From NCBI GenBank assembly GCA_003427395.1, contig BFEA01000015.1, forward strand, positions 2,016,025 through 2,080,024: a stretch of 64,000 nucleotides of DNA, written 5' to 3'. A model generated the notes under the pieces. The model saw only the letters and a program-made list of their open reading frames with translations. It was not told where the DNA came from and searched no databases. The position numbers and the translations under genes are program-made. Source of the stretch: Chara braunii. Its lineage: Eukaryota; Plantae; Charophyceae. This document shows positions 22,201 through 64,000 of the stretch, piece after piece. The number at the start of each line of letters is the position of its first letter. Within the stretch, counting starts at the first letter, position 1.

Positions 22201-22221
22201 GCGTGAGGTTTGAACGTCACA
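16275..22221 (+). mobile_element. Gypsy-like element A, 5'-truncated: integrase pseudogene (16275-17480), three accessory ORF remnants (17593-19750), att junction (19728-19748), 3' LTR (19742-22221)
   Basis: HHCC (AHEEQAAHF...CLVC), FSKYIEVYP, EEILTDN and a GPY/F-like region, colinear with element B. LTR runs TGTGACG...GAGGTTTGAACGTCACA. Confidence 0.85.
21500..21950 (+). pseudogene. LTR-encoded CxxC protein homolog (LTR A)
   Basis: From 21625, one frame reads HLCEYDIRETV...GFVIIDTIFPRTLLLLPFNELIVSP*TAVAPHWPNTMCSDCCRTECYR; the stop replaces the conserved Trp. Confidence 0.75.
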
Positions 22222-31250: not shown

Positions 31251-31327
<77 letters not shown>

Positions 31328-38300: not shown

Positions 38301-40830
38301 TCCCCATTAGTAATCGGGTGATAATTTTGAAAAAAATGCTTTTAACTGGTCTTGTGGTTCCAAGATTGTCAGGCCCCCTTTTGATCGAGGTCGGGCTATA
38401 CTATCACAAGCTACTTTAGAGAGAAACGAGGGATCCTCATGGTCATTTTTCAGATGTATGTTGCTGCCGCTTTCCTCAATCTTTGGAGCCGCTTAGGCAG
38501 GATAGGTCACCATGCCGCTTTATACCACATTGCCACATTGCCGAAAAAATTGTTGTATTCAGTGCCAGCGCTCGCCCTACTATTGAAGTGTGTAGGCCCT
38601 TCCACCTGGCCATTCTTCGCAGGGCCTCGTCCACGAGGGAAGCCCCATGGTTCGGTGGGGGACCCAACGCTGTAAGGCGCATACCCAATATCCGTATAGC
38701 CTCCTCTCTATGTTTCCATGCAATTGACGGGTCACGGGGGGAAGGTCTTGGGGGTGGAGCCACCAGCCCTCGGTTTTGGCCCCCCAATTGACTACCATAC
38801 TAGACGTCATTGAGAACATATGTATGGTAGTGATGAGCGTCTGTAAGGAAGAACGGTTGGCCTTGATCAACACCGTCAGATCATCATCGAAAAGCGATGT
38901 CATCGGTATGTTGTGGATTGGGATTTCAGACACGTCCATCTTTTCTATCTTGGGGTTTGCTCTCATGCTCATGGCAAGGGTCTCCACTACTATGACGAAT
39001 AGCAACGGGGCGATAAGATCCCCTTGTCTTACTGACCTTTGAAGTGGGAACGGATTGGATAGGTGGCCGTTCGCCATCACGTTAGTCGTTGCTGTTCTGT
39101 GGAGGGTGTCCACCCACCTCCTGAAATTAGGACCAAAATTTAGTTTTTCATGCACAGTTCCAGGAAGACCCAATCCACATGGTCATAAACTTTTTCAAAG
39201 TTGATGAAAATGACTGTTGCTTCCTTTCCTCTTTGTCTTGCATATTTGATAGTCTCATTCACCAGAAGAATGTTGTCTTGTATATTCCTCTTGGGTATAA
39301 ACCCGGACTGGTCAAGGTGGATGAGGTGAGTTATGTGAGGAAGCATACGGTTAGTGAGCGCCTTCGCCACCATTTTGTAAGGAACGGGCAATAGTGTTAT
39401 GGGCCTGTAGTTTCTAACTTCATTCTTCGAGCCCTTCTTGTACAAAAGCGTGGTAACCCCTTGATTGAGGAGACCTCCAAACGTGCCTTTTATCAGAACA
39501 CCATTTTTATAGTCCATGAGGTTCGTTCCAATCATATCCCAGAAGGCCAACCATAATTCTTTGGGGAACGAGTCTAGACCCGATGTTTTTTCATCCTCCA
39601 TTTGTTGGAGGGCGGTGTGAATATCGGTCCGGGTCAGCGGACATTCCAGTGTGGAACGATGCTCCGGTGAAAGTACAGATTTCAGGTTCTGCAACACTTG
39701 TTGTCTCGCATCTTTTACGTTTTTCGCTGTCCACTGAGATATTTTAGAGGTGAACAATTCTTTGTAGTATTTTGTTGCGTAATCGGTCACTGCATACGGG
39801 TTTGTAGCTTCAGAGCGGTCAACTTGGAGCGGATGTTTAAGCAAAATTATGGCAGCCTGTTTCGCTCTCGCCTTAGCTTTTTGAAAAAAAAAAATTGCCA
39901 TAGTCCCATCCATCTAGGTATGCTTGATCCTGGCTTGAATTTGCCACGCCTCTGCTTGAGCATCGAGATGTTCTTGGAGACGGTCCCTTGCCTGTTGCAG
40001 ATTGCAGTATGCAGTATTGTCCAATGGAGACGAGGATAACTTGTCATCCCATTGTTCCAAGGTACTGAGGAGGTCCTTCAGGATCGCTTTCTATTCCCTC
40101 GCCCTCTTTAAAGAAAAAATTTTCACTCTTTCTCTCAGTTGGGTCACCCCTTGATTAAACCATTCGACCACCGATCCAACATACATTAAATCCAGGGGGG
40201 GCAATAATCTGTCAAATTCAAGAATCGATCTGATGCTCCTTTCCAAGGACCTGTTGGGATCATTGATAGAGGCCGCCATACTCCCTTTTAGCCCCTCCCG
40301 CTCCTTCGACCACAAGATGATAGTCATCGGCCTCGTCACACGCCCACTATTCGCAAGAGGGCCCAATTTTTTTTAACCAATTACCAGCATTCCAACAGTG
40401 TGTAAAAGAACACCGGGCATACTGGGAGTCAACCAACTGCAATTGTGCCATGAGTTGGTTGAACATAAGAGTGTCAAGCCCCTGGTGCGGTAGCAACTGC
40501 CCCGACCCGTCGGATTGGGTTTGGTTTCTTCTATCAATCGTGGGGTCTGACGCTAAGTTGAAATCGTCTGCCAGGATCAGGGGGGAGTCAGTAGGCAACA
40601 CATGCATAAGCTGTAGAAAAAAATCAGCTCTTTCTGCCGACATGTTAGGAGCATATACGCTTGCGAGGTAGATTTCCTCCTCATCCCATAGGACCTTAAT
40701 GAATAACCATCTCCCATGGTTTCCATCCTTGAAAAGCTGAAGGGGTTTAATTCTCGTTGTGGGGGATCCACTCTCCCTTGAGAAAAGACCCGGCTTTCTC
40801 CTCAGGGTTCGATGGCTGAGGTTCCTCATC
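35386..40830 (-). pseudogene. Degraded L1/Tx1-type LINE ORF2 (EN-RT-C-terminus) with two tandem 3' tails
   Basis: ASVYAPN, ADDFN, NYRPITLL, QSGFIPKRNIQDN, SVRQGDLIAPLLF, LFDDD. Tail motifs at 35466-35510 and 35857-35909 with T-rich ends at ~35386 and ~35756. Confidence 0.9.
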
Positions 40831-41566
40831 GAATTTTCGCGGTGACCACAAGCACAACAATTATGATGACTACTACAACAACAATACCAACAACACAGAT
40901 TGCAATATTAACAACAATAACAACAACAACAAGTGAGGAATCGCTTGTTTGGGGGGAGACCATGGTTAGTGGTGCAGGGGAAGGTGAGTGTGAGGATGCT
41001 GATTGCCCACCCTCGCAAAAAAAAGTTGACACGCCACGTTTTGGTGAGGATGTCTAGGTTAATAAAAAATCCCCATCGCACCCTTCATGGTCACTGGAGG
41101 GTACAAGGACAAGATGAAGCTTCTGATGATTGTAATCAGAAAGACGGTAAAGAATCTGAAAATTGGGGGGACACAACAGAGGGATAGGGAAGAGAACGAA
41201 GGAAGAAACGAAGAGGGCTTCTCAAAATTTGTTGTTGCGCCGCGGTTCTCACTCGCGCACATCTTGCGGCGCTATGAACTGGGCTTTGACTGGACCGCGC
41301 CCGTAATCTTGTGTAACTATCGCTTTATGTGGGCCCAATTGTAACATTATCTTTCTTCTTTCTTGATTTCCTCGTGTTTGCCCGCCTTCTTCTTCTTTGT
41401 CGTGCATGCTTAATACTCTGTTCTAATTGGCCTAAACGTCTGTACAACTGGATCGATGTTTGGAGTGCAGCTACGACCCCCACGCCGCAGCCTGGCTATG
41501 TAGACGTAGGCACTTCCTCTCTTCTCCTCCTCACCAGTTGGGCTTAATCCTATATGTTTAGCGCAA

Positions 41567-41672
41567 GCATGCATGCTATAAATTTTGCAAGCGCGATTAG
41601 TTTGCTCTCTATGGACCTTGGAGTAAGCGCGATCAGTGAGGGCTGACTGATGAGTCACCTTGACAGGTAGGT
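41567..41672 (+). promoter_or_regulatory. Putative LTR core promoter (GCATGCATGC-TATAAA) and downstream splice donor; also at 30852-30958 and 52417-52522
   Basis: Motif is identical in three LTR copies, with AG|GT(GA/AG)GT about 90 nt downstream in each. Confidence 0.55.
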
Positions 41673-41841
41673 CGATGAGAGAGTTAGGCGATCCGACGAG
41701 TTGGTGTCGGGTATGCGGGGTTGACAAGCGGGCCGCGACGAAATGTGGCACACGGGCGAACTTGGCTTGCATGCTCGAACCAAGCGGGTTGACAACTCTG
41801 TGTTGATGCGCGGCGACGGACTGCCCGCATCAGGAGAGTGT

Positions 41842-41997
<156 letters not shown>

Positions 41998-43443
41998 AAC
42001 TATGTGTGGGATGAGGTCTCTTCTTCCAGTTATCTGTATAATTTTGATTTCTACTTTAGTCGATCTTGTTGCGGCCCTCTCAGACTTTCCTTGTAAATCG
42101 TTTCGGGTTTTTCTTTGACGTTTTTGCCTCATATGCATGCATGAATGGATGAGAACCTTTTTCCAGTGATCTTTTCAGATTTTTTATCTTGTTCTGTGAT
42201 GCCTGCTTAATTCAAATCTCGTCACTTTCTAGTATCCAACTGTGTCGAGCAATAATCCGGGTCTGATTGAAAACACTCGCTATAGATGGTTTGGGTTTAA
42301 TTGTTAGCCTTTGATCGTCATCAGATCACTGAGAATGTTGTGATGTGTTGATCCTCGATGCCAGGACAATTGCCCCCCCCTCCCCTTCTCTTTCTTTTTG
42401 TCACATGAATGGCATGAATGTGAATGTAATGGCTGGATTGCATTCGAAATAGCGTGGGTAGAATAGTTGCATGCAGGCAGGACACAATCGATACACCGAC
42501 GCGAGAAACCCGAGTCTGATCCACTTTTGTACGTGTGCACGCTCGCGTACGACCACGATCTCAACAAAACCGAGTCGAAGTGTACGCGCGCGTCTGCATG
42601 AGTCGACCTCGATCCTGGCTCATTATCATGATAAGGGATGTGGGAGACCAAGTTCACTAGTCAGATATGGTTGTAGAAATTCCCTTTTGGATCACCGATC
42701 GTGAGAGTATAAGGAACCGAGAGTATCGCGAATATTGGAAGGGTGAGCACCTCAGACAACGGGGAAACTTGAGAAACTCGGAATTCCCCTGTCTGACGTA
42801 GAACGACCGACTGTGCGCGGGGGATTTTCACTGGGCCGTAACTAGCGATCCTAGGGGCCCAGACTATCTGAATACTAACAACGCTCAGTATTACATATCT
42901 CCAGGCTTCATTGTTATTAATACCAGTTTCCCTCTCTTCCATCTCCTCCTTTCATATCACCAACTCACAGTGGTACCGTGGAATCCCGTAGCTCTCTATT
43001 TGCCCCGCACACAGTGTGAAGAGTGCCAGCGGTACCAGGTATATCGAGGTTCGGGATTTGTCCGACGAACTTGAACCGAAGTCGAGCAGCGGTTACACAG
43101 CTTCCGCTTAAGGCCAGCCTCGTCGCATTTCGAAGCTTGTTACGAGCGGCGCCGACAACTGTTCGAACAGCGCAACAGCCATCGTGTCCCACCGGTCCAC
43201 CAGATAAGGGACCGACCACGGCGACGCAACTGGCAAATGCAATAATCCCATCCCCGAAGGATGAAACGCCAAATACGATCTTCGAGTACCATTTTGCACC
43301 ATTATCCATAAACTTGCCACCAAAGATCTCAGTTCCGACCTGGGACTCCACCCCCACTTTCCTAAAATCCTTGGCACACCCCCTTTTCGCACTTTGGGGC
43401 CCCCCATCCCACTCCGATCAGGAAGTCGCGTTGGGCGTGAGGT

Positions 43444-43456
43444 TGGTATCGGAGCC
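43444..43456 (+). promoter_or_regulatory. Primer binding site complementary to initiator tRNA-Met
   Basis: TGGTATCGGAGCC (canonical TGGTATCAGAGC) exactly where LTR homology ends. Confidence 0.9.
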
Positions 43457-43499: not shown

Positions 43500-44650
43500 C
43501 GAACGATCTGGCGAACAGAGGACGACTGAGGCAGCGGGACGCGCCGCGCCACGATCCTTTAGTAACATGAAGTAGGTCGGCTGGGCGGCAGGCAGTCCAT
43601 ATGAATGCGAATTAGAACCATAATCCGAATCCTGGTCCAGTCCCGGCCCCACGAGCTCGTGCGCCCATAGCCCCACCGGACCTCTATCTTTTCGACCCTG
43701 CACATCATTTGGTCGGGGCATGGCTAGCCACGCTATGCATGCAACAGTACGATAACGATGAAGCTCAATTAACATCCCCGCTAGATTGGGAGGGGACGTG
43801 CATCATTGGTTCAACACTTACGTTTGGGTAGATCTCCCAACTTTTGAACGAAATTTCTTGAACCGATTTGACTACATTCATCCGGAACAAGCCTTGTTCA
43901 TGATTAAAGATCGGGTACAAAAGCCACTCGAATCTGTCACAGAATATCGAAACCGGTTTTATAGGATGTTTGTCAAAACCGAACGAGGAGAGGAAGGCGA
44001 CATGAATCTATTCATCGACGGGCTCCGCAGCAGGACCATGAGGGCGAAATTGCGAAAGCAATTTTCCCCGATCAATCATACCCTGCAACATATTATGTCT
44101 GCAGCAGAAGAAATGGAGCGGCCGCCAATTTCCTAGAGGGGGACGATTATCTTAGAGAGGGAGACTCCTCGGAACTGGCTAGAGCAAGGGCCGAGCTGGC
44201 CGCGCTTCAAAATAAGTTAAAAAACATGGGTTTTGTCTCTGGTCCCGTCACCTATTTAGAGCACATCGTAACCAAAAAAACCGGAGCAGACGCAACCGCA
44301 GGGTTGCCCATGCCAGCGATGGCCGCTCCCGTACATGTCGTGCCCATTCTTGCAACCCTTCAGATATGACGAGTAGAGTCAGTGAGCCAAACACGATATT
44401 AGAGTTGACCCAGACTTTAGTCAGCCTAATACGAGAATGCAAGGAGCAACGGGAGTACAACGCCCGGATGGAATCGTTGATGCGATCTATGCGCCCCATT
44501 GCTATTAGAGCCGCCCCAGTGACACAAGGCATTGCCCCCGCCCAACCAGTAGGAGGAATGACAGCCAATCTGAGTGTCTGTTACACATGTCATCAGTCGG
44601 GCCACATCGCTCAGGACTGTCTACATCGATCTGCGCAAGATTGAGTCGGG
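43500..44650 (+). pseudogene. gag: gag (capsid-like domain and CCHC knuckle)
   Basis: WF..FERNFLNRF..QKPLESVTEYRNRF..FIDGL; CYTCHQSGHIAQDC at ~44578. Confidence 0.85.
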
Positions 44651-45199
44651 GCTGCCCCTGTGGCCGCTACGCCAGTGGCCAACGGTCAAGGGAGGGTAGG
44701 AACGATGCTTGAAGAGATAGAAGGAAGGGGAAGCACGATAGCTACTATCGAGGAAGCAGCGAAACTTATCCCGCTCGATCAATATATCGCCTTAAGGATA
44801 TCCGGGGTTGGGAATGATCGGAACCATCCGACCGACGGACGAGCGAAAAGAAGTAGCCGAATGGAGACCTTCCTCAAGTGAAATGGAGTCAGGCGGTCCT
44901 ACCTTCGTTACGGGAGAAATTGACATTTTGAACATTGTTCGGGCCTTAGACCATCGGATTCCATTGTCGATTGGCCATTTGCCATCAATATCAGAACAAG
45001 CTAATGAACGCATGTTGCAACATTGCAAGGCGAACAGAAAATGATTCGCTCTTAGTAAACTGACAATGACGAAAGGGAAAGCCCCAACTCCCGATGACAA
45101 ACCCGAAAACCCCAGCACGATCGACCCAATATGGTTGGGACTGATCCAGAAAGATGATCATTTCCTATGTATCAAAGCCATTCCGTAGAAATCCGCAGA

Positions 45200-47790
45200 A
45201 TGTGACATTGAAGTATGGGGAGTTCCGTAAAATGCTGTCATCGATTCAGGAGCAGCTGTTCAGGCTGTATCACTGAAGGTAGTGGAAAAAGCAGGACGAC
45301 AGAAAAATATGATCACGTTAGCCGAAAAAGACCATTTCGTCTCTGCGGACGTTGCTTTTCGGTTAGGAAAGGTTCATGCCTTAGGGGATGTGGTGGTATT
45401 GGATGTCAATACCTATGATGTACTTCTGGGATTACCGACGTTCGTCGCGCTACGAGCCAGTCTGGACTTCGAACGACGATCGATAATCCTACGAAATACA
45501 GGCGTGAAACCTTATGTTATTCCAATGCGTCTAACTCTACGAACCATGATGCTTGCGACTCGGAAAGTTCCTCCGACACCTGGAGTCGCTCTCCAAGTAA
45601 TCACCTGGCAACTTGGAAAGTCGAGCAGGAGGATGAGAAACACGATTCCTCAAGCGAGTCCGACAACGAAAATGAAGTTGATTTCGATAAGACTCAACAA
45701 CTGATTCGCTACCTAATCCGACAGAAGACTCCTAAAACATTTGTCCTTACGGAAAGAAACCTACAACGAACTCGGGCTTTAATTTTTGGAGAACCCCTCG
45801 TACATGTATCCCGGATGATTGACTCTTTGGAACTCCCCCGAACCTTGTATGAAACCACGACCCCACTTCTTTCAAGATACCGAGAGAAGAAGGCGTTATG
45901 CGACATTACGGGATTGCCCGTTCCTTACTGTCGTCCGAGAAAGAGGTGCGATTATTACACTTAGGGGTCGAAAGAAAGCTTTGGAACCCCCTGAGCGCGA
46001 CGACCCTACGCTCTATGAGCTCGGCATCAAGATCGTCGAAAAGTCGGTTCCCTGGCAAGACATCAACGACGGTGTGACCCCGGAAGAACACGTGGCCATC
46101 CGAGAAGAGGACGCCCAGATGGTCGCCACTGTGTTCTCCTGGCGGTTGGATAATTCAAGTTCCTTCCTTTCTGCTCCCCCTGCCGAGAACAACCGCAGAG
46201 TGAACATGAAACACATGATGGTTACCATACACGGAAGGCCGTACGAACTGCATGTACCTCAATATGTACCTAACAAAACTCATTGACTGATTGCATATAT
46301 TTTGACTGAATATCAAGATGTTATTAGCGTAATGGATACAAATATTGGATTGTCTTTAGTTATTCAACACGGGATTCAGATCGAAACGCATCTCCGATCC
46401 ACTGTAAGCCATACCGATATTCTCTTGCAGAGAGAAAAGTTGCATTACAAAGGATCAGGGAGTTTGAGGCTAACGGATGGCTCGAACCGGCAACAAGACC
46501 TTCGTCATTTCCCGTGGTCTTAGTCCCGAAAAAAGTGGGTCGATTCGCATTTGCATTTGTTACGGGAAATTGAATGACATCACGATCAAGGATGTGCATC
46601 CCCTTCCCTGGATTGATGATTTGTTGGATGCGATTGGGTGTGTGAATTATTTCAGTAAGTTTGATATTCGCCATGGATTTTATTACATCTTGGTCAAAGA
46701 AGAAGATCGGTCGAAGACGGTCTTTGTGCTGTTTGAGGGCACCTAGCGGTGGATTCATTGTCCGATGAGAATCTGCAATGCACCGGCCACGTTCCAAAGG
46801 GCGATGAACGTAACCTTTCAGATTTTCGTTAACAAGACCCGACTGATGCAGGGGATGATTAATTTCTGCGTTATTGTGTACATGGATGATATTCTGGTCT
46901 ATTCGGAATCATTTCACGTGCATGCGCAACATATTGAATGGACGTTGGGAGCGCTGCGGGACACTGGGTTCAAAATTGCACTGGAAAAGAGTGAGTTTTT
47001 CCTCTTGGAAATCTCGTTCTTGGGTTACGTAGTAACGCGAGGCAGTTTAAGGCCATATTCAAAAAAGGTCGCGGTTGTTCGAGAAACCCTCACGCCCACG
47101 TCACTGACACAGGTTCGGGCCTTTTTGGGACTGGCGTCGTACTACCACAAATTTATCAAGGGTTTCGTGGCAGTCGCACGACCTCTAAAGAATCTTCTGC
47201 ACAAGGACCAGCCCCTGCGGTGGGATATTGAGTGCGAGCGAACCTGTATTGCTTTAAAGGAGGCCCTGGTTACTGCGCCTATTTTGATCCGGTCGGACCC
47301 ACAAAAACAGTTCATACTCATTACGGACTGGCAGCTTGAAGCGATCTCCGCTATCCTAGCCAAGAAGGGGAAAGACGGCTGCGAACACGTCATTGAGTAT
47401 GCTTCTCGGACAGTGCCTGACGAAAGGAGAAACGATTCAGCTCCTCAGGGAGAGTGTTACGCAGTGGTTTGGGGAATTCAACATTTCCATCTGTATCTCT
47501 ACGGACAGAAGTTCCTTCTTGTCACGGATCATGAGCCCTTGCTGGTCCTCAAGAGGCTCACCAATTACACGGGTACGATTGGACGTTGGGCTGTATGACT
47601 GCAAGAGTACGACTTCGATATCGTCCATCGGAAGACGGAGCAGCACGGGAACGCTGACGGCTTGACACATCTGCATCGACCTGACAAGGTGACTAAAGGG
47701 GAGGAGATTACCTCGTGGAAGGAACCAGAACCCGCCAACGAGCGTTCATATGGACAGGTGGCCATCCTTCCTCGAAATCCCAAGGGGTGA
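45200..47790 (+). pseudogene. pol: pol: aspartic protease, reverse transcriptase, RNase H (stops and frameshifts)
   Basis: AVIDSGA, DVLLG, PLPWIDDLLD, NAPATFQRAMN, VYMDDILVY, ITDW..EYASR..ECYAVVWG..TDHEPL..NADGL. Confidence 0.95.
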
Positions 47791-47922
47791 TTGACACGAT
47801 GGAGATGGGGCGCGAAGGTCATTCCGAAGGTCCCCTTTCTCCTCTCTCATCCTCCTCCTTTCCCTCCCTCCCTGATAAATTTTGCTATTTTTCCGAGGCA
47901 ATTTCGAGAGTACTCGGTCCCT

Positions 47923-49400
47923 ATGCGACCAAGCGGGGAAGGTTATGCCGAGTGGGTAGATTGTAGGCGGTGTGTTTCCCGAGCCCATGGTTCCTGTATC
48001 AAGTACCGGAATGCGGACAAACCCCGGTTGTGTCCTATGTGTCGCACCGATGAAATCCCGACGGAGGCTCGATTTCTCGAAGCCACGTCCGAAGGACTAG
48101 AAAAGACCCGACGGCTTAGAAGGGCTGAAGTGTGGACAAATGTCGTCTTGGTAGCTAAGGTAGTTGGGAACCCCCTCCGAGATTTCACAAGGGAGAATTG
48201 GAGACGGGCCAATGAGAGAGCTCAGGATTACCGATGGAATGAGGAATGGTTAGAAAAACGGAAAACGGACGGGAGCGGGATTTGGATGTATGTCCCGCAT
48301 CCGTTTGTGAAGTATGACTGGGTTAAGTCAGCCCACGAGGAGACTGCGGCCCATTTCGCTGTCCGAATCACAGAGGCGGCAATTGATAAAAATAAGTGGT
48401 ATTGGACCAGGTCCAACATTCGCGACGATGTTAAGTTCATCGTCTGAAATTGTCAGGTCTGCGCCGCCGACAAAGCGCCAATTCAGCCGCCTAGGTCGAT
48501 AGTGCCTACCGTAGTCAAACGACCATTCCAGAGGGTTAGTATGGATACCACCGATATTGTCATACCCCCTGGACCGAATAGCTGTGAGTATTCCATTCTG
48601 TTGGTATTCGTGGAATACTTTTCGAAATGGATCGAGGCGTATCCATGTAAGACGCGACAGGCGGCTGAAATTGCGAGATACATCAACCGTTTTCTCGAAA
48701 TGCACCAAGACACAGAGGAGATCCTTACGGACAATGGGGCACAATTTAGATGGGAAGTCTTGAGGAATCTAGTCTTACACGGTGTCTCTATCCGCAATAC
48801 TGCTCCCCACATGTCGCAATCTAACGGACTGGTGGAGAACGCCAATCGAGTGATTAAGACCGCTTTGCGACGCAATATCGCGGCAAATGACACGAGGCTG
48901 TGGTCTGATATCGTGGACCATATCCTGGCCATCCACCGGGGGACACCCCACAAATCCACGGGTCTGACCCCCTTCCAACTACGGACCAGTAGTCTGCCCT
49001 GTGTAGCCCTACCGAGCCTAAATGATGAAACGGCCCTTCCGTGACGGACCACTAGGGCGACAGATAAGGATAAAGCCCAACGCCACATAGAACTGATGGA
49101 AAAGGTCCTCCCCCGATTGGCCCGAAAAAGACAATGAATGACAGAAATGGCCCATGGGAGACAGGTCAGGAGTTACGAGGCCCGGAATGGGAACGCTGGG
49201 CATCGGCCCCAATATAAATTAGGGGACATCGTGCAGGTGAGGAAATGTGCTCGCCTGGGCAAGCTAGCGCTATGATTCTTCGGGCGATTTCGCGTGGTCG
49301 AGCTCAGTCCCAACGGGGTGAACACGATGCGGCTTGCGCCGGAGGTGTCGAGAAGTCGATCGGCTCGTCCGATCATTCGACACGCGTCCTGCCTTCGTCC
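47923..49400 (+). pseudogene. int: Integrase with N-terminal PHD-like Cys/His module
   Basis: WVDCRRC..HGSC..CPMC; HHCC zinc finger; D (VSMD), D (TDNG), E (GLVE); STGLTPFQL; GPY/F-like region. Confidence 0.92.
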
Positions 49401-49520
49401 TTTCCCCTCTTCCCCTTCTCCTCCATCATTTGCATTGTCCCTCGGTCAAGAATAGGACGACGACTCTCTAGAATCCTTTTTTCTCTCTCGACCACCGTCT
49501 TCGACTCCGCCTTCATCGCC

Positions 49521-51690
49521 ATGAGTTTTTCGACGGAGCAGGTGATCAACGAGCGTCTGATGATCCCGAGGGGGCGTTTAGCGACAATTCGGCAGGTGAA
49601 GCGACCTTGGTCGAGTTCCGATCTCCTTCAATTCGCAGCCTTCTTCAACACAGCAGCCATCCACGCAGCAGCAGAGTTCCGTTTCGTACACGCAGGGTCG
49701 ATGCGTGTACTGGCCGAGATTTCGACTTTCCAGCGCTTGTCCTCGCCCGGCGTAAGCCACATATCCGTCATCGTCACTTTCATGGGTGATATCACGGTGC
49801 TACACCCGACAATTCATGCAGACATCTATCGGCAGTTGCGGGGTTGAACCGAGGAGATCACGGCCGCGTGGGTCGAGTTGCTGGCTCGACCGAGGGAAAT
49901 AATCGTGACCTTGAACGATATAGACCTCCGACTCCGCATCTCCAGCAGCGCGCCAGAGATCTTTTTCCCGGAGCTCCTCCCCTTTGAGTGGCCCCAATGA
50001 ACCGTCATCGTCGCTCCCTCTTCAACCTTCCGTCTGATCTCCCCACCTTCTGGCAATCTGCTATCGATCCCGCCCTCTCCTTCAGGATCCAGGAGCTCAG
50101 CGTGCCGATCTTGGACTAAGATAAGTGGAACGGGTGGTGGGACGCTTACATAAAACTCAGCTTTTGTTTGGTGTGTGTGGTATTTCACTGGGCGGAGCTA
50201 GCCCCAAAAGGTGAAGGGGATGAGGTCCAGGACAACGAGGTGGAACTATTGATCGTGCAGGCTTGGCGGACGAGTACAAAGGGAGAATTGTTGGGTATAT
50301 TATTCGGCGAGGTGGAAGAAGGCCATCTCGACGCAGTCAAGGACGAGTTGTTGGTGCTCTTGGCGCAGCTGGTGGACGACTTGCCCTTCAACATCCTGTC
50401 GAGGTGTGACGGGAAGCCTGGGACAGACGTGCTCATCGGCACTCTTGCGCGGCATTTTTTGTGGCCCACATATACGGAGCTGGACGGGGATAACTGCTTT
50501 TACCCGTCCCCGAGCCTCTATCTCGAAATTGACGTCACCGATGTCACACTGTGGGACCCTTTTGTCCGGCGAGGAAACGCGCTAGGAGCCAGTGACGAAG
50601 AAGAAGAAGACGAAGAAGAAGAAGAAGAGGAGTCAGAGGAAGAAAAATCAGGCACTAGTCGGGACTGACCCCGACTATATTGGGTCCGAGGAAGAGGAAG
50701 AGGAAAGTGGATCGGGAGAACAGAGTGGCCGTCCCCCTCCAAGCAAAGAGGAGGAAGACTCGGAGGCCGAAGCTTAATGGAGGCGGGAGAAAACGGAGGC
50801 CAAACGACCAGTCGAAGAATCTGAAAGGCCGCCACCACAGTTGTTGCTAGGCGATCCATCGCTAAATCCGGAGCTGCCGCGCGAAGAGTTTGAAGGAAAT
50901 GGAACCGCAGCAGAGGGGTCAGGAAGTCGACGCCGCCAAAGGAGTGAATCCCCGACTCCGTCTTCTCCGCCATCCCGAGCCACTCTTCGCCTTCGTGGAA
51001 ATACGGACGATCGGGCTTCGTCCCCGATCGTTATCCCGCCGTCCCCTTGACTTCCTCACCCCTCACCAACTCCTGGGTCGACCCCCGTTCCCAGATGGAT
51101 GGTGCCCTTTCCCACCCTCTCTCTTCCACCAGTTTTACGTCACCCGCCTTCTCGTCACGGTCGTCCCGCATGCTACCACCCGCTCCTTCGCCGCCTCCTT
51201 CCCTCTCCATGTCCTTCTCTTCAGCGCGACCTGGCAGGAATTTAGTAATATAGAAGTTTATTGCATCATCTCGGGCACGATCCCCGCCTGTGAAAATTAC
51301 AAGAACTTCCACGCTGCTATCCCTCGCACCCTCTCCACCCTCTACCCCAACTATCTCGCCTCTCTCCCTCATCAACGAGAGCACCCCCGATTCCCCCACA
51401 TCCACCGCACCATCCACTACACCCGGATCCCCACCGACGATAGGGAGATTCGCCGCTTCATACCTCCCCTCCCCCAAGCCCATCCACCACCTCCTCCGCC
51501 CGTTATCAGATTGCCCTTCCCCGGAAATGTTTAGGATAGAGCCCGTGAATGCCAAACTGAGTGACATCCACACTCTTATCTTACGGTAAGTAGCACGTGC
51601 GAGTTCCACGTCGATCCTCGGGTTATACGGGAGCTTGCTCAAGATTGGAACCCCCTAGGCGTCACATATGTGACGAACCATTTTCTGTAA
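49521..51690 (+). pseudogene. Three accessory ORFs of unknown function downstream of integrase
   Basis: Protein-level conservation with element A (see findings). Confidence 0.75.
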
Positions 51691-52692
51691 TCGCGCGACT
51701 TTCTGCGCGAAGCTGCTTTGGGGAAATGGGACGGGCTAGATGGGTGAGTTGTGGAAAGATGGGTCAGTAAGGCAAGTTGCATGGATAACCTCGTTTCTTT
51801 TTGTTTTCTGTGGAATCTGTTGGGTTGGTGTCGAGAAAGTCCCACGCCGACGATTGGGTAACCGCGCCTTAACAAGCGTGATGGACAACGGTTGTCATGA
51901 CTTCCTTCTTGTTCTGCTGTGAGCACTAGGAATTTTTGGTGCGATCATCGCGCGGGAGTATCATTTTTTGAATTTTCAACTGATGTCGAGCCCCTACACG
52001 CTCACGGAATTGTTTTTGGGCTTCTCGGAATTTCTTTTTGCAATTAGGACTTGGACTAGGAATTTAGGTACTCTGAATTTTGCTGCGCCACGCTTCTCAC
52101 TCGCGCACATCTTGCGGCGCTAGGAACTGGGCTCTGATTGGACCGCGCCCTTAATCTTATGTAACTGTTGCTTTTGGCGGGCGCGATAGTAACTGTATCT
52201 TTCTTCTTTCTTGATTTCCTCGTGTTTGCCCGCCTTCTTCTTCTTTGTCTTGCATGCTTAATACTCTGTTCTAATTGGCATGAACACCTATACAAAACCG
52301 GATCGATGCGTGGAGTGCGGCTACAACCCCCACGTCGTGGCCTGGCCATGCAGACGTAGGCACTTCCTCTCTTCTCCTCCTGACCACTTGGGCTTAATCC
52401 CATATCTTTCGCGCAAGCATGCATGCTATAAAATTTGCAAGCGCGATTAGTTTGCTCTCTATGGACCTTGGAGTTAGCGCGATCAGTGAGGGTCGGCTAA
52501 CGAGTCAGCTTGAGAGGTGAGTCGACGAGAGAGTTGGGCGATCCAACGAGCTGGTGTCGGGTATGCGGGGTTGACGTGCGGGCTGCGACAGACTGTGGCG
52601 CACGGGCGAACCTGGCTTACATGCTCGAACCAAGCGGGGTGACAACTCTATGTTGATGCGCGACGACGGACTGCCCGCATCGGGAAAGTGTG

Positions 52693-52755
<63 letters not shown>

Positions 52756-54187
52756 AGCTATGTGTGGGATGAGATCCCTTCTTCCAATTATCTGTATAAT
52801 TTTGATTTCTACTTTGGTCGATCTTGTTGCGACTCTCTCGGACTTTCCTTGTAAATCGTTTCGGGTTTTTCTTTGACGTTTTTGCCTCGTATGCATGCAT
52901 GAATGAATGCGAACCCTTTTCGAGTGATCTTTTCGGATTCTTAATCTTGTTCTGTGATGCCTGCTTAATTCAAATCTCGTCACTTTCTAGTATCCATCTG
53001 CGTCGAGCAATAATCCGGAGTCTGATTGAAAACACTCGCTATGGATGGTTTGGGTTTAATTGTTAGCCTTTTATCGTCATCAGATCACTGAGAATGCTAT
53101 GATGTGTTGGCCCTCGATGCCAGGACGATTGCCCCCCCCTCCCCTTCTCTTTCCCTTCGTCACATGAATGGCATGGATGTGAATGTAATGGCTGGATCTC
53201 ACCCGAAATAGCATGGGTAGGATAGTTGCATGCAGGTAGGACACAATCGATATACCGACGTGAGAAACCTGAGTCTGATCCACTTTCGTTCATGTGCACT
53301 TGAGAAAACCGAGTCGCAGCGTACGTGCGTGTCTGCATGAGTCAACCTCGATCCTAACTCACTATAAGGGATGTGGGAGACCGAGTTCAGTAGTCGGATA
53401 TGGCTGTAGAAATTCCCTTTTGGATCATCGATCGTGAGAGCCTGAGGGACCCAGAGTATCGCGAATACTGGGAGGGTGAGCACCTCAGACAACGGGGAAA
53501 CTTGAGAAACCCGGAATTCCTGTGTCTGATGGAGAACGACCGACTGTGCGCGGGGGATTTTCACTGGGCCGTAACTAGCGATCCTAGGGGCCCAGACTAT
53601 CCGAATACTAACAACACTCAATATTACATATCTCCGGGCTTCATTGTTATTAATACCAGTTTCCATCTCTTCCATCTCCTCCTTCCATATCACCAGCTCA
53701 TAGTGGTACCGTGGAACTCCTTAGCTCGCTATTGGCCCCGCACACCGTGTGAAGAGTGTCAGCGGTACCAGGTGTATCGAGCTTCGGGATTTATCCGACG
53801 AACCTGGACCGAAGTCGAGCAGCGATTACACAGCTTCCGCTTAAGGCCAGCCTCGTCGGATTCCGAAGCTTGTTACGAGCGGCGCCGACAACTGTTCGAA
53901 CAGCGCAACAGCCATGGTGTCCGACCGGTCCACCAGATAAGGGACCGACCACGGCGACGCAACTGGCAGAGGCGATAATCCCATCCCCGAAGGATGAAAC
54001 ACCAGATACGATCTTCGCGTACCATCTTGCACCATTGTCCCTAAATTTGCCGCCAGAGATCTCAGCTCTGACCTGGGACTCCACCCCCACTTTCCTAAAA
54101 TCCTTGGCACACCCCCTTTTCGCACTTCCGGGCCCCCCATCCCACTCCGATCAGGAAGTCGCGCTGGGCGTGAGGTTGGGCGTCACA
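51669..54187 (+). repeat. 3' LTR of element B (2519 bp)
   Basis: TGTGACG...CGTCACA inverted termini. Confidence 0.9.
53400..53978 (+). CDS. Intact LTR-encoded 192-aa CxxC protein of unknown function
   Basis: ATG-initiated open frame; homologs in all other LTRs of the window. The 5' LTR copy (from 42667) has a premature TAG. Confidence 0.75.
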   Translation: MAVEIPFWIIDRESLRDPEYREYWEGEHLRQRGNLRNPEFLCLMENDRLCAGDFHWAVTSDPRGPDYPNTNNTQYYISPGFIVINTSFHLFHLLLPYHQLIVVPWNSLARYWPRTPCEECQRYQVYRASGFIRRTWTEVEQRLHSFRLRPASSDSEACYERRRQLFEQRNSHGVRPVHQIRDRPRRRNWQRR

Positions 54188-55185
54188 GCGAGGCCCTAAC
54201 ACATTTCTAGTAACCTTTTACACATATCCTACTGCAGTTACGGCCGGATCATCCCGGATGTGGATGACTCTGACTGAAGTCATGTCCAAAGCTTTGTAGA
54301 ATAAGTCCTAGAACACGTTTTAGACTTCAGCTAGAAGACCCACCTCCCCGGAGGATAGAGACCTTGCTCTACAACCCACCAAATGTGCAAAATGAGAATG
54401 AATCTAAGACTTCCGTTAGAGGACGGAAAGATACACCACCGTTAGTTTTGTCTTTTCTGCATGTAGTGAGTGACGGATTACCACTGACACAGCAAGATAA
54501 CATTCATTGATGACCACAAACTTTGAACCGAAGTAGACCAATCATAAAAGGTAGGAAGAAGAAGAAGAAGAAGAAAAAGAAGAAGAAGAAGAAGGAGAAG
54601 AAGAGGATACCCCTAAGGCGGCTGGTGTGGCGATCAGCCTAAACCGGTCCGGTTCACTCACAGTTTTGCTTGAGTTCTCTCGCCAGGATTGTTTTTGTTT
54701 TTTTTTTCACTCGGCAAATGAAGTCGTGTTCGGGATATTTTCTTACCATCTCGTGTACCTTCTCTCTTGTCCTTTCTCTCTCTTCCTTTTTTTTTTTTCT
54801 TTTTTTTTCTTTTTTCGTTTTTTTTTCTTGAAATGGATTTGCTTATTATACAAAGCCGAGAACCGGGCCCGGCGTCCCTCGCAAAAGAGAAAGGTGAGAC
54901 CTCTGAACGAGGCATCATCGGCCCAGGTCAGAGGGCCCACCTAGTGTGATGTACCCAACAATCACCTATACCCCATCTCCCCCATGCACACTGCTTTACC
55001 CCGTTGTTTATTACCACTTCCAGTTTCCATCTGCTAATTCAAAGGTAACACAAAGCTTACAAGCCTACAACAAACCTACAACACCTACAACACCACAAAG
55101 TTATGAACCTACAAAACTACCCACACTGCCTGTGCTGCCTGTTCTGCTTGTACTACATGTACTGCCTGTACTACCTGTTCTCTCC

Positions 55186-57897: not shown

Positions 57898-60800
57898 TTA
57901 CAGGTCGTGTAATAGCCACGGAGCATACTTCATTCTCCCATCATTTGAGACAGATGCAAATGCCTCTTTCTTGGCCCATGTCATTGAGAACCAGATAATT
58001 CCTTTCATTCTCCAATCCGCTGACACCACTAGCCTAATTGCTGCTTTTATCTGATTAAAGGACTGAGGAGCAGAGATTGTTTCGCTTTGGAAAACTTTGG
58101 CATTTCTTGCTGCCCAGATTACCTCAAAAATAATTCCTCTACATATCAGGGACATGTATCCTTCCCCGCTTGTGAAGTTACTATTCCCTGTAGATTTTGC
58201 ATGTAGTATGAATTCCTCCCCCCACACCTCCTCCAACTCTGAAACTCTTTTCCACTTCTCTTTCCACCATTCCCAGATTCCTTTCGACAGAGGACAGTGT
58301 AGCCAGAGATGGGTTGCATTCTCCCAGCCCCAGCCACAACGAGCACAGGTGGTAGGGATATCCATTCCCCTCAAATTTAGCCAAGTAGCAGATGCTGTGA
58401 CTTGCAAGGATTGTAACCATTGCAGAGCCGCCTGCTTCTGTGAAGGAATTTTTTTTAAGACTTTCCACAGCTTGTACAAATCTGTACTTTGGACTGCCAC
58501 ATTTTGGCAGTGCATCAGCCTTCTCTGAGCCGTGGCTAAAGGCTTCTTAGTAACATTCCGCTGTTGAACTTGAACGCCTATTTTTGGTTTGTAGTTGATC
58601 ATGGGTGTACTTGGATTAGGGAGCCTACCTACTTTCCACCCATATAAGGTCGGCTCTACCAGAATCCTTTCTAAACTTATTTTAATTAATGAGCAGTCTG
58701 TCTGTTTTAGTCCCTGAACTCAAAGAGTTACCCCTTCCGCTGAGTCCCCATTTCGAAACCTTAATCCCCTCTGGTATATCTGGGCCTACCACTTTCAGGA
58801 AATGATCCTGCTCTCTGGGGTCCTTCAGCCAACACCCCGGATTAAACTCCCTCTCCTTACTCAGAGCATTAATCCAACGTTGCGGGACCGATTCCTTCAA
58901 TTTTTGGAAGTTCTGTTCCACTCTGTGAATTCGTGGTCGTTTGGCCCTGATCTCCGCTTCTGTCGCCCAGTCATCAGTCTGGGAATCCCAAACATCTTTC
59001 AATTGTATGATCCCATGTTCGACCCAGGTTCTCCCAAATGAGCCGGAGCTACCATCCGCTAGGAGTTCGGATCCTTGGTACTTTACATACCCGTTCTCCC
59101 ACAAAATCTGATTGAGTATTTCTCTTTGAGGCTTAGGTTCTTCCAACTGCACGGGGCTTACTCTAGACCAGGCCTGTAGTATCCCTCTCCATAGTCTAGA
59201 TTTGGGTTTCCTATGGCAGAAGGACTTAATCATAAAGCATAACCACACTTGAGACCCCTCCTTTAGATTCCATTCCTGCTGCAATATAAATTCTGCCATT
59301 AAGACCCAGTCTTTATCATTCTGTCCAAACATGGCCAAAATAGGCCATTTAGCCAGCAGGGCCACATTTTGAAAGAGGGGGTCTAGAATTCCCAACCCCC
59401 CTTCTTCTCTGGCACAGGCTATGGTTTCCCAAGCCACTTTAACTATAAACCCCTGATCCTCCAAGGCTTGGGGCTTCCACAAGTATCTGGCCGCAGTTCT
59501 CTTAATCATCTTATACGCCTCCTCACTAATTAAATGCACTGTCATAGGAAACCATAAGATCGAAAAGGCGGCAGTTGACAGGACCAAGGCTCTACCAAAC
59601 AACGAAAGCTGATGATTGCGAACCCATCCTGAGATGCGGGCAACCACTTTATCTGTCAGCAGTGTGTCTTGGGTGCTAAAGCAGTCAGATAGGGAAACGT
59701 GAACTCCGAGAAAGCGGTCCGATGTATTGGCCGGGACTTGACGCAGGCCCCAATTCACACAAAGATCATACTGGGGGGGTAAGAAATAAGACCGATTTGT
59801 CCCAGTTAATTGACGCTTCAGAAAGTACACAGTATTCATCCAGAACTTCCCTAAGGACCTGCAAGGCTCCGGGAGTATTACGACACGCCAAGGTAAGATC
59901 GTCAGCTAGCGCTCCCCCTTTCCACTGAATCTTGGGAGAGATATACAAGCCCTCAACTTGTTTGTTTATTCTAATATTCAATAATAAAACCTCTAACTGA
60001 ACCACAAACAATAGAGGTGCAAGGGGGCAGCCTTGACGCAGAGATCTGGTCAAGGGGAAATCCTCTGAGAGTCGCCCATTAACCATCACTACCGAGGAGG
60101 CTCCCGAATACATTGCCTTGGCCCAGGTACAGAACCCCTTACCAAAACCCATCCTCTCCAGTGTTGTAAACACAAAGGCCCACCCGACTTTATCGTAGGC
60201 CTTTTCCATATCCAATAGAAGGATGGCTACATCTCTTTCCTCCTTGCCCATTATCTCCAACGCCTGGATAGTTGACATAATATTATCAAAGATCGTTCTG
60301 CCTTTTACAAATGCCCCTTGTTCCCGCCCTACCAGGGTCGGAAGGAACGTTGCCAACCTGATTGTCAGAGCCTTGGCCAAGATCTTATATGCCACATTTA
60401 AAACAGAGATCGGTCTATAATTTCTAACCTCTCTCTTATCCCCCTTCTTATATATGAGGGAGATAACTCCCGTCAGCCAGGCTTTGGGTAAGGACCCAGT
60501 AAGAAGTGTTTGATTAAAGATCTGAGTTAAAAACGGCCCGAAAGAGTCCCACGAGACCAAGAACAATTCTAAAGGGAGTCCATCAATACCTGGACATTTC
60601 CCTTTGGCCATTCGCTTCGCCGCCCGCAAAAGTTCCTGGGAGGAGAACGGAGCATCCAACAGATCCCTTTCCTGAGAACGTAGTTTAACCTGAACATTCT
60701 CCCAGAAGTTAGATGCTGCTGCTAGATCTGAGTCCACTGAGTCCCACAACCGTCTTGTAGAAACAATGTCCTTAAAATAGGATGTCGCATATGAACACAT

Positions 60801-62045
60801 TTCTTTGGAATCCTTAGCCAGAGGGGCATTCAGAGAGAAAGGATGAACCAGTTCTCGGAGCCTCGGTTTGGCCTGCTTAAGGATAATAGATCTAAACGTG
60901 ATCTTTGTCATCCGATCGTATCCTACTAGTCCTCTCAGCTTTAACCACTGAAGCCATTGTTCTTGTTTTTTGGCCTCTATTTTTTCCAGTTGGATTAGCA
61001 GGTCTTTCCTTTTCTCAGACCAGTAGTAGTCTGAGAAAGGGTTCCCCCCCATCTTGTGTTCAGCCTCTACTATCTCCTCGCGCAAGGACTGTTCCTTCCA
61101 TGTGCGATTGGTTGCACTTATACGGGAGAAGGTACTCAAGGCAGATGTTACAATACCCAGGCCCACCTCGGCCCATGTCCCAGCATCCTCAAAGAGATCC
61201 TGAGCTCTCATCCATTTCTTCATCTGGTTATCTACCCACTCCGGAATCCCTTTAGAATTCAGCAGGTTCACATTAAGTTTGAAAGGAGGGCGGCAGGAGT
61301 CCAACTGCTCCTTGGTCAAAATGTCCATCATCACCGGGTAATGGTCCGACATGTGGTCAATTTCCAGGTCGCACCACATACATCTATCCCACAGGGCACC
61401 CCTTGCCAGGAAGAAGTCCAATCTTCTTCTAGGAATAGGGGTCGTGGGGGAAGGGCGAGGGCCGTGCCAGGTGAATCCATTTGACTCTGGGTTCAGTATC
61501 CTGAAAACATCAATCAAGTTCTGTGAATCCACTAAGGCAGACAGCAGGAGTGTATCTTGTCTAATTGCGGTAGTAGTTGGCGAATCCAGCCCAGGGTTAA
61601 AAATAGTATTCCAGTCCCCGGCCATCACCAAATTCTCTACGTCCGGGATCCACGAGGGTAGAGCAGCGAAAAATTCTAGTCTTTCTTTATAACACACCGG
61701 GGCGTAGACTGACATTACAACCCAGTCTTCTTCCCCAACTGCCATTTTAACCCATACACACCTCCCTCTAGGATCTGCAAAATAATCAATAACCTCCACG
61801 TCTAGGTCCTTATTTATCAGAATCGCTACTCCTCCACGCGACCCTTCCGCCGGGGCCCAAAATTGAGGGCCCTTCCACCAAACGGCACATTCCTGAATTT
61901 TTTCCACATTTAACTTTGTCTCTTGAAGGCACGTAATCTGTGCATTTGGCGTGTGGATCCAGTTTGCCAGACCACTTCTTTTCACAAAGTCTCCAATACC
62001 TCTAACATTCCAGCATGCCAAACGAATCTTATTAGGCAGGACCAT
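57898..62045 (-). pseudogene. LINE ORF2 (APE endonuclease, RT, C-terminal zinc finger), broken near 59770 and 58680
   Basis: CWNVRG, CLQETK, GDWN, RLDFFL, SDHYPV, NYRPIS, LDMEKAYD, RQGCPLAP, LADD, CARC..HLWLHC. Confidence 0.95.
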
Positions 62046-64000
62046 GAAGCTGGTCACTGCCGCCCTGAGGTTGGATGCGGTTTGGACCTGCCGCTTCGGC
62101 CTCCAGTTCCTCTCCCAACAATTCTGCTTCAGTATTGTTCGGGGGACTCTGAGGACCAAACTGGCTTACAAAAGTTTGTGTTTCAAGTATATCACTAGAG
62201 CCTGACACCCTTAACCAATCCGCTATATGGGCAGCAGACAAGCATGACCCCAGTCGTATACCTTTTAAGCTTGCTGACTCTGGGGATCCAAGGGCATCCA
62301 GGGAATACCAATGAAAGCTGGACTGAGCCCATTGCTCTTTCGTCCCTTCCATAGTTACCATCTTTAGGAAGGCCAGATGAAGAACATATTTGCCCTTGTC
62401 TTCTGTCTCTACCACATATCTTCCCCTTTTAGGATCTGACAGACATTGGATAGAACCCATTCCTTTCAAGACCGAGGTCTGTGTTACCTCAACCACCTGG
62501 GAGTCTGTTGGCTGAGTACGCACCCTTATTGAGGGGAGGCTCAGTGATTCATCCTCCGCTACTAGAGTCAGGAACTTTGGTCCTTGTTGTGAGTTTACAC
62601 AGATCAGTGGAACTAGTAGGTCTATTGACTTCTTAGCCTCCTTGTTTGCTCTTGATAGAGTAGTCATGGGGGCCGCGAACGCAAGATCCCACTGAAGACC
62701 ACCTTTCTCCATTGGTCTCTTCTTTGACGGAATCTTAGTCGGGGATTTTTCCTCAGGCAAATCATCTTGATATGATTTCCGCATTACTATTCCCATATCA
62801 TTTAGTTTGCCCTTCTTTACTGGAGGGTTCTCACAACTGAGTTCCCCCGTTTGTCCGTTCCCCTTTTCCCCAGTCCGTCTTTCTCTTCTCTTCCCTGTCT
62901 CTTTGGTTTTCTTTCCTTTTTTTAAGTCTGCCTTTTTAATGGTCGATCTAGCTTTAAAGAGAATTTCAGCAGCTTTGACCACCTCCATTTCATCAGACTG
63001 TATATCCTCAGTGAGGGCAGCCTTCTTCAGCCCAGATCCTTCTCCCAGTATAACAGGAGGTTGGTCTGGTTTTAAGGGCAGATCTGTAGCTTCCGACTCA
63101 GGTAAGCCCAATTTGGCTTCTTCAATCATTTTGGAGCAATCTTTGAAAATTGCTGCCGCTTCGCTGCTCATCGTGATATCCTTAGCTTCTCTCTGTGTCT
63201 TTGTTATCCTCGAATCCCCTTTCTCCTCCTCCGCCTTGTGTCCCTCCCCCTCTGACTGCCCCTTATCATTTTGCTTGACCTCCTCTTCCTCCACCGGGAT
63301 TCTTCCTTTCCCGTCTCCTCTAGGGGTCTTTTTCCCTTTCATAGCAACAGTCCATTTCTGGACTAGGCGGCTCTTCTCCTTACGGATTTTCGGCCTTCCC
63401 GTCCCTCCCTTCGACCCTTTTCCCAATGCTTCCCTTGTGTCCTTATCCTTAACCTCTGACTTCTGGGTTTGTTCTGAGCCCCTTTTCTCCCCATTCTCCC
63501 CCTTCTCTCCTTTATCCCCTTCCTCACCTTTCCTTTCCCGTTCCATGTCTTCGTCCTTCTTCTGGTCTTGGAGCTCACTCCCCTTCATCAGAGCTTTTTT
63601 GTAATCCATCTTCTCGTTTGTGGTAGAGTCCTTTTTTGCCTCCGTTCTCACAGCCAAGGGACAGGCCGGGTTGTTTTCCTCATGGAAAAAATGTTTGCAC
63701 GCCCTACACCAAGGTGAGTCAGGGCAAGCCACGTTCAACTCAACATAGCCATGATCCCCCAGATCAATAATCAAGACTTTTTTGTACGCCACACGTGCAG
63801 AAGGCACCAAATCAAACCTGACATTCCAGAGGTCAGGCGAGATTGGGTCTGCAAACGCTGGGGCTACTCTTAACACCTTTCCAAATGCCTTTGCTACTGC
63901 GCCTCTCAGATGAGGGAGTGCTGCAATTGGGACCTGAATTACCCTGATCCAGAAAAACTGAAACTTCAGGGATTCATTCCATTCGTACAACTCATATTCG
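62032..64000 (-). CDS. LINE ORF1 (at least 652 aa, N-terminus probably outside the window)
   Basis: FWIRVIQVP...FGKV, CRACKHFFHEENNPAC knuckle, charged linker, globular-looking C-terminus; overlaps the ORF2 start by 14 nt. Confidence 0.85.
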   Translation of the reverse strand, partial: EYELYEWNESLKFQFFWIRVIQVPIAALPHLRGAVAKAFGKVLRVAPAFADPISPDLWNVRFDLVPSARVAYKKVLIIDLGDHGYVELNVACPDSPWCRACKHFFHEENNPACPLAVRTEAKKDSTTNEKMDYKKALMKGSELQDQKKDEDMERERKGEEGDKGEKGENGEKRGSEQTQKSEVKDKDTREALGKGSKGGTGRPKIRKEKSRLVQKWTVAMKGKKTPRGDGKGRIPVEEEEVKQNDKGQSEGEGHKAEEEKGDSRITKTQREAKDITMSSEAAAIFKDCSKMIEEAKLGLPESEATDLPLKPDQPPVILGEGSGLKKAALTEDIQSDEMEVVKAAEILFKARSTIKKADLKKGKKTKETGKRRERRTGEKGNGQTGELSCENPPVKKGKLNDMGIVMRKSYQDDLPEEKSPTKIPSKKRPMEKGGLQWDLAFAAPMTTLSRANKEAKKSIDLLVPLICVNSQQGPKFLTLVAEDESLSLPSIRVRTQPTDSQVVEVTQTSVLKGMGSIQCLSDPKRGRYVVETEDKGKYVLHLAFLKMVTMEGTKEQWAQSSFHWYSLDALGSPESASLKGIRLGSCLSAAHIADWLRVSGSSDILETQTFVSQFGPQSPPNNTEAELLGEELEAEAAGPNRIQPQGGSDQLHGPA

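Follow-up and report, generated by a model that had tools for sequence, protein, structure and literature searches.

The window analysed here is a 64,000-nt stretch of a Chara braunii contig. An ATG-to-TAA frame at 53400–53978 (+) is open and encodes 192 amino acids; it sits in the 3′ LTR of element B, which is a dead Ty3/gypsy element. Comparison of the two direct LTRs of this element (41232–43446 vs. 52080–54179) revealed 86% identity. The 5′ LTR is followed by the primer-binding site TGGTATCGGAGCC (43444–43456, +), which we take, by consensus, to be of the initiator-Met tRNA type. In the pol region, the Pfam domains RVT_1 and RT_RNaseH (46747–47595), rve (48448–49041), and, weakly, RVP_2 (45231–45701, E 0.0018) were identified, and the best PDB sequence matches were Ty3-type reverse transcriptases. 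The extra coding segments located between integrase and the 3′ LTR are 31–50% alike at the amino acid level between elements A and B; one of them is acidic and rich in Ser and Pro, and those at 49522–51560 had no match in Pfam.

The ends of the 3′ LTR of element B were set by DNA contigs of run X1, of which 154 diverge before 51669 and 175 beyond 54187. The LTR thus proved larger than the two-LTR match had implied, its left end being TGTGACG at 51669; a start near 52070 was discarded, since the contig breakpoints place it at 51669. The remaining LTRs of the window are less complete. The left ends of the B 5′ LTR, LTR C, and LTR E are missing, and element A is without its 5′ half, with no flank pair for a target-site duplication. 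The right end of A meets LTR E at 22221–22230, eight bases before the E start codon, as if A had inserted into the older, related LTR E. The truncation points of the B 5′ LTR (41215–41230) and LTR C (30510–30520) nearly coincide within the LTR, approximately 400 bp in from its left end, and LINE sequence adjoins each of them. ORF2 of L1-type LINEs (endonuclease, reverse transcriptase, zf-RVT) was observed at 57898–62165 (-), in three long frames, and at 36570–41200 (-). The window also includes a Harbinger-type DDE_Tnp_4 transposase fragment (2806–3429) and a stop-free frame of 716 codons (6820–8970, -) with no Pfam match. The coordinates of the features are collected in Table 1.

Table 1. Positions of the LTR gene, its copies, and the surrounding retrotransposon features in the window.
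Feature	Position	Strand	Remarks
LTR gene, element B 3′ LTR (B3′)	53400–53978	+	intact; 192 aa; C50-x-x-D53, C117-x-x-C120, SSDSE, Arg-rich tail
Gene copy B5′	42667–43245	+	86% aa over the match at 42667–43236; two premature stops; found by tblastn
Gene copy C	31864–32319 and 34792–34929 (span to 34932)	+	split by LINE
Gene copy E	22230–22775	+	frameshifted; found by tblastn
Gene copy A	21535–21990	+	frameshifted; found by tblastn
Gene copy D	24077–24634	-	open frame; most divergent copy
Element B 5′ LTR	41230–43443	+	first ~400 bp lost; adjoins LINE
Broken gag-pol of B	43601–49500	+	protease, RT, RNase H, integrase; gypsy order
Extra coding segments, integrase to 3′ LTR	B 49522–51560; A 17595–19500	+	at least three segments
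Internal near-copy of extension plus TA	51656–51668	+	palindrome with LTR start, where polypurine tract expected
Element B 3′ LTR	51669–54187	+	2519 bp; TGTGACG...CGTCACA
TATA box CTATAAAA	52426–52433	+	putative promoter
Leader	52460–53399	+	~940 nt; (GA)n tract; 30 ATGs
Conserved U5 end	54046–54176	+	common to all six copies
Terminal extension	54177–54187	+	11 nt ending in CACA; absent from 5′ LTR
LTR C	30510–35126	+	left ~400 bp lost
Element A 3′ LTR	19742–22221	+	own junction palindrome (19728–19741) ahead of LTR
LTR E, right part	22222–23004	+	directly past end of A
LTR D	23683–25694	-	left end uncertain

Copies of the LTR gene and selection on its protein

The original prediction had claimed an accessory gene conserved at the protein level within the LTRs, and homologues were indeed present at all six LTR places that it named. 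Because B5′ and B3′ come from the paired LTRs of a single element, the six copies represent five independent subfamilies, and the statement that every subfamily carries the gene holds true with the 64-kb window as its scope. By tblastn, copy D was detected weakly (E 0.015); however, it reached E 1.2e-9 with a profile made without D or B5′. The input of this profile consisted of B3′, C, E, and A together with two matches from outside the window, so that these four copies match it by construction. Among 2371 six-frame pieces of the window, 15 matched at E < 1e-5, all of them inside the six LTRs. The next-ranked piece had E 1.2; among reversed decoys, the best value was E 0.17. Copy D can be aligned through the core only; past CxxC its alignment is unconvincing and the Arg-rich tail is not clear. 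Copy C is interrupted by a LINE (32320–34809) that has a poly(A) tail and is flanked by a target duplication of 18 bp (32302–32319 and 34792–34809).

The core motifs listed in the prediction recur in the copies, although they are looser than claimed: YR is absent in D, and SDSE is exact only in B3′ and D, standing in the latter 60 residues past CxxC and not 33. In the six-copy alignment, ten residues are invariant (R32, F40, C50, D53, G80, L95, P104, C117, C120, and R161). R32 and R161 fall in poorly aligned regions, which leaves F40, C50, D53, G80, L95, P104, C117, and C120 as firm invariants. The stop codons of B3′, B5′, and C lie no more than two codons apart, E and the database protein P0004 end shortly after, and in all five the stop is preceded by the conserved basic tail.

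Copies B3′ and C were aligned ungapped over 152 codons, with a DNA identity of 53%, and their differences are distributed over the first, second, and third codon positions as 67, 52, and 96 (p 1.8e-6). The number of identical residues was 58, compared with 37.9 ± 4.0 (maximum 53) in 10,000 neutral simulations, which were indel-free and matched to the pair in the number and kind of changes. The gene frame of B3′ and C contains no stops, against a simulated mean of 6.4 (P 0.0012). The other five frames hold 3–12 stops per copy, and an antisense reading of the ORF was ruled out by the stops in every other frame. A dN/dS near 1 between subfamilies had been set as the refuting test; it was run, and the gene survived it, the codon model giving omega 0.24 for B3′, C, and E. 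The value omega = 1 was rejected with a 2dL of 69 when three copies were used, 86 with four, and 90 with six. For the 14 between-subfamily pairs, pS was 0.67–0.78 (saturated) and pN 0.37–0.52, on alignments built on the protein, a choice that favours the selection result; the bootstrap interval of pN/pS touched 1 for two of these pairs (B3′–D and C–D). Both the omega and the pN/pS figures contain neutral decay after insertion. Between subfamilies, the protein is under purifying selection.

The comparison of B5′ with B3′ yielded a different picture, with 12, 14, and 14 differences by codon position and a pN/pS of 0.66 (95% interval 0.34–1.41). Once inserted, the copies decay neutrally. Under such decay, a stop-free copy is expected by chance in 33% of trials; therefore, the intact state of B3′ is probably a matter of luck. 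Domestication of the B3′ copy was considered and rejected, because the 20 sites at which it deviates from the other DNA split into 5 synonymous and 15 nonsynonymous, as under neutral decay. These are sites at which at least 85% of the other DNA depth has another letter; 20 of 23 ORF sites were kept and three below 85% were dropped, the 23 being among the sites listed (40 of 346). The gene also evolves faster than integrase (36% vs. 48–67% at the amino acid level between A and B). It is in the active lineages that the gene is selected, and we consider it nearly certain that it is a real accessory gene encoded by the element.

Relatives and predicted structure of the protein

The B3′ protein contains 29 Arg and no Lys and has a pI of 9.3; the pI range of the family is 9.2–9.6. 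By composition alone, 9–12 residues of the final 40 are Arg or Lys (12 in B3′ and P0004, 9 in P0002). Its C-terminal part is arranged in the order SSDSE-type motif, RRR helix, and Arg-rich tail. No clear transmembrane stretch was found (maximum KD19 1.43), and the second residue is A, N, K, or W, so that the Gly2 of myristoylated proteins is absent. Judged by the invariant CxxD and CxxC and by the arginine-rich tail, the protein may be an accessory regulator that binds metal and nucleic acid.

When searching for homologues among 1.84 billion representatives, we identified five matches, three of which were clear: P0002, P0004, and a segment of P0003. The first two are NCBI records on contigs of 2.7 and 4.0 kb. 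P0003 is GBG61242.1, a Chara braunii gene model (CBR_g19774) of 1077 amino acids that bears a WH1-domain name and is the sole named homologue; the LTR gene corresponds to its internal segment, residues ~425–580. This model is probably a chimeric annotation, and its fusion illustrates how the LTR gene contaminates gene annotation. The two other matches, P0005 (E 3e-4) and P0006 (E 5e-4), are repetitive and do not have the motifs, and were dropped as chance. Outside the three Chara-type records, no cellular or viral homologue was present among these representatives.

Pfam contained no family at E ≤ 1 for the query protein, and scanning of 17 of the 18 alignment members returned three families, each for one member, with a best E of 0.039. 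The word-based search with the single protein revealed no homologue among 12 candidates, and that with the alignment revealed P0004 alone among 724; among 4253 longer proteins none was found, by a search insensitive enough to miss P0003. The best E among PDB sequences was 2.7, the ESM Atlas offered no usable match for P0001 or P0004, and scans of metagenome and viral contigs gave 96 and 10 pattern matches, respectively, none of them confirmed. The LTR gene thus defines a protein family without a match in the libraries searched.

The AlphaFold model of the full-length protein had a pLDDT of 50 and a pTM of 0.28; for the core, the pLDDT was 60, and a pTM of 0.51 was reached in one of five models. 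In fold searches with these low-confidence models, no match rose above noise (the best Z scores were 4.2 and 3.3, and none had E ≤ 0.001), and no nuclease or ligase fold was seen in them, the models being uninformative. Matches to F420-hydrogenase-beta and PUA-like folds were discarded as uninformative.

Putative promoter, transcripts, and ends of the LTR

The motif TATAAA is invariant in five LTR copies, namely B3′, B5′ (41576), C (30861), A (20580), and D (25221, minus strand), around which A and D otherwise align poorly. The start codon lies 954–1090 nt from the TATA box in the four copies measured, and the stop codon approximately 200 nt ahead of the LTR end and ~360 nt ahead of the likely gag start, an interval that contains the primer site. 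Since the ORF is downstream of the shared TATA box, the gene would belong to R/U5, ahead of the primer site and gag, and not to U3, a placement that assumes TATAAA to be the promoter and a transcription start predicted from it. The analogy drawn originally with the U3 genes sag of MMTV and nef of lentiviruses is therefore not supported, the ORF lying downstream of a TATA box that five LTRs share.

The promoter part and the U5 end of the B and C LTRs align well, unlike the leader between them, which cannot be aligned between B and C past the GA tract, yet has a similar length. It contains 17–30 ATGs across the copies. A candidate intron was recognized in it by eye, with AG|GTGAGT at ~52517 and an AG nine bases before the ATG; a leader that is unalignable but kept in length resembles an intron. 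The (GA)n tract, approximately 270 nt past the TATA box in the B and C LTRs, is of variable length (52697–52754, 41847–41996, and 31127–31326). A hairpin in U5 is weakly supported (two-sided change in 4 of 22 pairs, covariation term +0.36).

Transcripts were sought in three poly(A) RNA runs of one study (X5, X6, and X7), of which 6–13% each was read, at 80% likeness. In X6, reads of one direction covered the ORF to a mean depth of up to ~20 and those of the other to 12; in X5 and X7 the cover was up to ~4, all of it in the orientation usually indicative of antisense RNA. Among the positions listed for the two stretches covered (51560–52690 and 52760–54300, with the candidate intron divided between them), no splice joint and no sharp start or end of RNA was present. 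The reads show a low level of LTR sequence in RNA, pooled from many copies, and their support for a dedicated mRNA of the LTR gene is weak. Expression of the gene by solo LTRs from their own promoter, as had been proposed, is plausible by anatomy, but the RNA is thin and of mixed or opposite strand. A 40-nt LTR motif (52963–53002) was covered by ~900 reads of X6, nearly all in one direction and with uniform non-LTR flanks; the motif belongs to one abundant transcript, in which it is probably reversed.

The ends of the LTRs have an unusual arrangement. Integrases need a CA end; however, the 5′ LTR of B ends with GTGAGGT flush with the primer site, with no CA end (43437–43456), and 79 DNA contigs share this junction. 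At the right ends of B3′, C, A, E, and D, an extra 11–12 nt ending in CACA are present. The polypurine tract before the 3′ LTR is absent in both A and B, and a copy of the extension followed by TA precedes TGTGACG instead. Two exact junction palindromes, in A and B, compare with 0.07 expected by chance even when one mismatch is allowed. The near-copies match the end of their own element in 11 of 12 and 10 of 11 bases, vs. 8 of 11 for the other element. The palindrome resembles the junction of a two-LTR circle (51656–51675, 19728–19748, and 54169–54187) and is family-wide in the DNA contigs. In the simplest reading, the DNA copy would join its two ends, or switch template between them, and integrase would cut CACA-TA-TGTG. 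The permuted ends bear on end-joined DNA as a possible normal precursor of integration.

Possible functions of the LTR gene and comparison with known systems

Among the functions considered, we favour a nuclear, zinc-stabilised, arginine-rich regulator that would aid the production or export of the full-length RNA of the element in a Tat- or Rev-like manner, and we assign to it a probability of about 0.35. Transcription would start ~30 nt past the TATA box, so that the LTR gene would come first among the cistrons of the genomic RNA; 3′ and solo LTRs would carry it as well. To form the mRNA, the ATG-rich leader of ~950 nt would likely be spliced out as an intron, but it must stay in the replicating RNA, because it is copied into every new LTR. 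A single metal ion is likely coordinated by C50/D53 together with C117/C120, and RNA binding and nuclear import are the likely tasks of the basic tail. Acting in trans, the protein would promote the unspliced genomic RNA and be selected at the level of active elements. It counts against this reading that the predicted metal site needs Asp as a fourth ligand, only three Cys being invariant; in addition, no homologue, family, or fold in Pfam, PDB, the ESM Atlas, or the searches with low-confidence models points to Tat, Rev, or another regulator. The thin RNA cover with no splice joint among the positions listed, the unclear tail of copy D, and the scant covariation of the U5 hairpin weigh against it as well.

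A weaker but serious candidate is an anti-silencing factor, which would shield the elements from silencing by the host through binding to LTR DNA, silencing proteins, or small RNAs. Comparable proteins would be the VANC proteins of VANDAL transposons and the silencing suppressors of plant viruses that are small and rich in cysteine and arginine. The between-subfamily selection data fit this function equally well, evolution faster than that of integrase suits a conflict with the host, the protein is small, basic, and Cys-containing, and a gene located right behind the promoter would permit early expression. On the other hand, the Pfam results for the query and the 17 alignment members did not connect the protein with any such family.

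We regard it as rather unlikely that the gene was captured from a host or virus and has an enzymatic or host-modulating role apart from the element RNA. In its favour, charophyte retrotransposons are reported to have acquired DNA methyltransferases (PMC5890265); however, the 1.84 billion representatives held no cellular or viral homologue past the three Chara-type records, the word-based searches yielded P0004 alone, and the PDB sequences yielded none. Only slightly less favoured is a helper for the joining of ends, or for the recognition or targeting of the joined CACA-TA-TGTG site by integrase. The gene occurs in the very elements that have no CA end by the primer site and whose 3′ LTR is preceded by a junction-like palindrome; the two oddities of this clade, gene and ends, may be linked, and the protein is basic. 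Against this, co-occurrence is the sole support, and the uninformative models displayed no nuclease or ligase fold. An equally speculative extension would see in these elements a “complex” retrotransposon, in which the LTR is a self-contained trans-acting cassette spread by solo LTRs and its product serves an end-joined, palindrome-cut integration.

It is also improbable that the ORF opens a longer protein as its first coding exon, joined by splicing or readthrough to gag or to the extra ORFs farther downstream. Its position on the sense strand just upstream of gag agrees with such a role, whereas the shared stop position of B3′, B5′, and C, with E and P0004 ending soon after, past the conserved basic tail, and the ~360 nt between the stop and the likely gag start, with the primer site intervening, argue against it. 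Finally, similarity from DNA-level constraint or chance, with no selected protein, has very little to commend it: the B3′/B5′ pair does show no selection, stop-free copies are expected a third of the time, and the RNA support is thin, but that pair gauges decay after insertion, the subfamilies at 53% DNA identity are yet colinear in one open frame with third-position bias, and the codon-position simulation, the 2dL tests, and the omega of 0.24 largely refute it.

The LTRs of plant-lineage retrotransposons are treated as non-coding. A whole gene under selection in R/U5 implies that each 3′ and solo LTR holds a promoter followed by a gene. Whether as the favoured regulator of element RNA or as a factor of silencing evasion, the LTR gene is a small, testable candidate in an algal relative of land plants.

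Several known systems share single features with the LTR gene. The sag gene of MMTV and the nef gene of lentiviruses are situated in U3 or overlap it, and both are expressed from the 3′ LTR via spliced mRNA. The Chara gene resembles them as a protein-coding sequence inside an LTR; however, it is downstream of the TATA box, and there is no sequence match, membrane anchor, or Gly2. With the arginine-rich-motif regulators Rev and Tat of HIV, it has in common that the protein is small, basic, and Lys-poor, with an Arg-rich stretch, and that the genomic RNA would have to retain a candidate intron; it differs from them in its location inside the LTR and in the absence of a sequence or fold match. 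The gag of Ty1 begins within the LTR, and in both elements coding sequence thus occupies R/U5 upstream of the primer site, but in Ty1 it is the start of gag, whereas the Chara LTR gene is a separate ORF that ends ~200 nt short of the LTR end.

The literature searched listed no report of the gene described here or of any ORF within the LTRs of Chara, and an earlier annotation may exist in the Chara genome paper, Repbase, or Dfam. Extra ORFs of plant LTR retrotransposons as such are already known. They include the env-like aORF-3S and the antisense aORF-3R of Grande, RIRE2, and Retand, which are placed in the internal part of the element, chiefly in the stretch from pol to the 3′ LTR, with none named inside an LTR (PMC7264820). 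Like the Chara gene, the aORFs are conserved accessory ORFs of obscure origin with proposed roles similar to those of retroviral accessory genes (PMC7264820); unlike them, the Chara gene is entirely within the LTR, in the 5′ LTR ahead of the primer site. Conservation across copies and subfamilies, selection, and the lack of a cellular homologue, by which accessory ORFs are recognized, were all found for it. In rice, ORF0 of Retrosat2, FRetro3, RIRE3, and RIRE8 is described as lying upstream of gag-pol and evolving faster than pol (PMC3485330). As far as that description extends, ORF0 and the Chara gene are alike as extra sense ORFs ahead of gag-pol in long-LTR Ty3/gypsy elements, lineage-restricted and fast-evolving (PMC3485330). 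No ORF0 protein was among the five matches to the 1.84 billion representatives. In contrast to ORF0 as described there, the Chara gene is wholly 5′ of the primer site and so is doubled in both LTRs and carried by solo LTRs. The gene of Chara is thus a selected accessory gene whose location is unusual, as are the ends of the clade that carries it.
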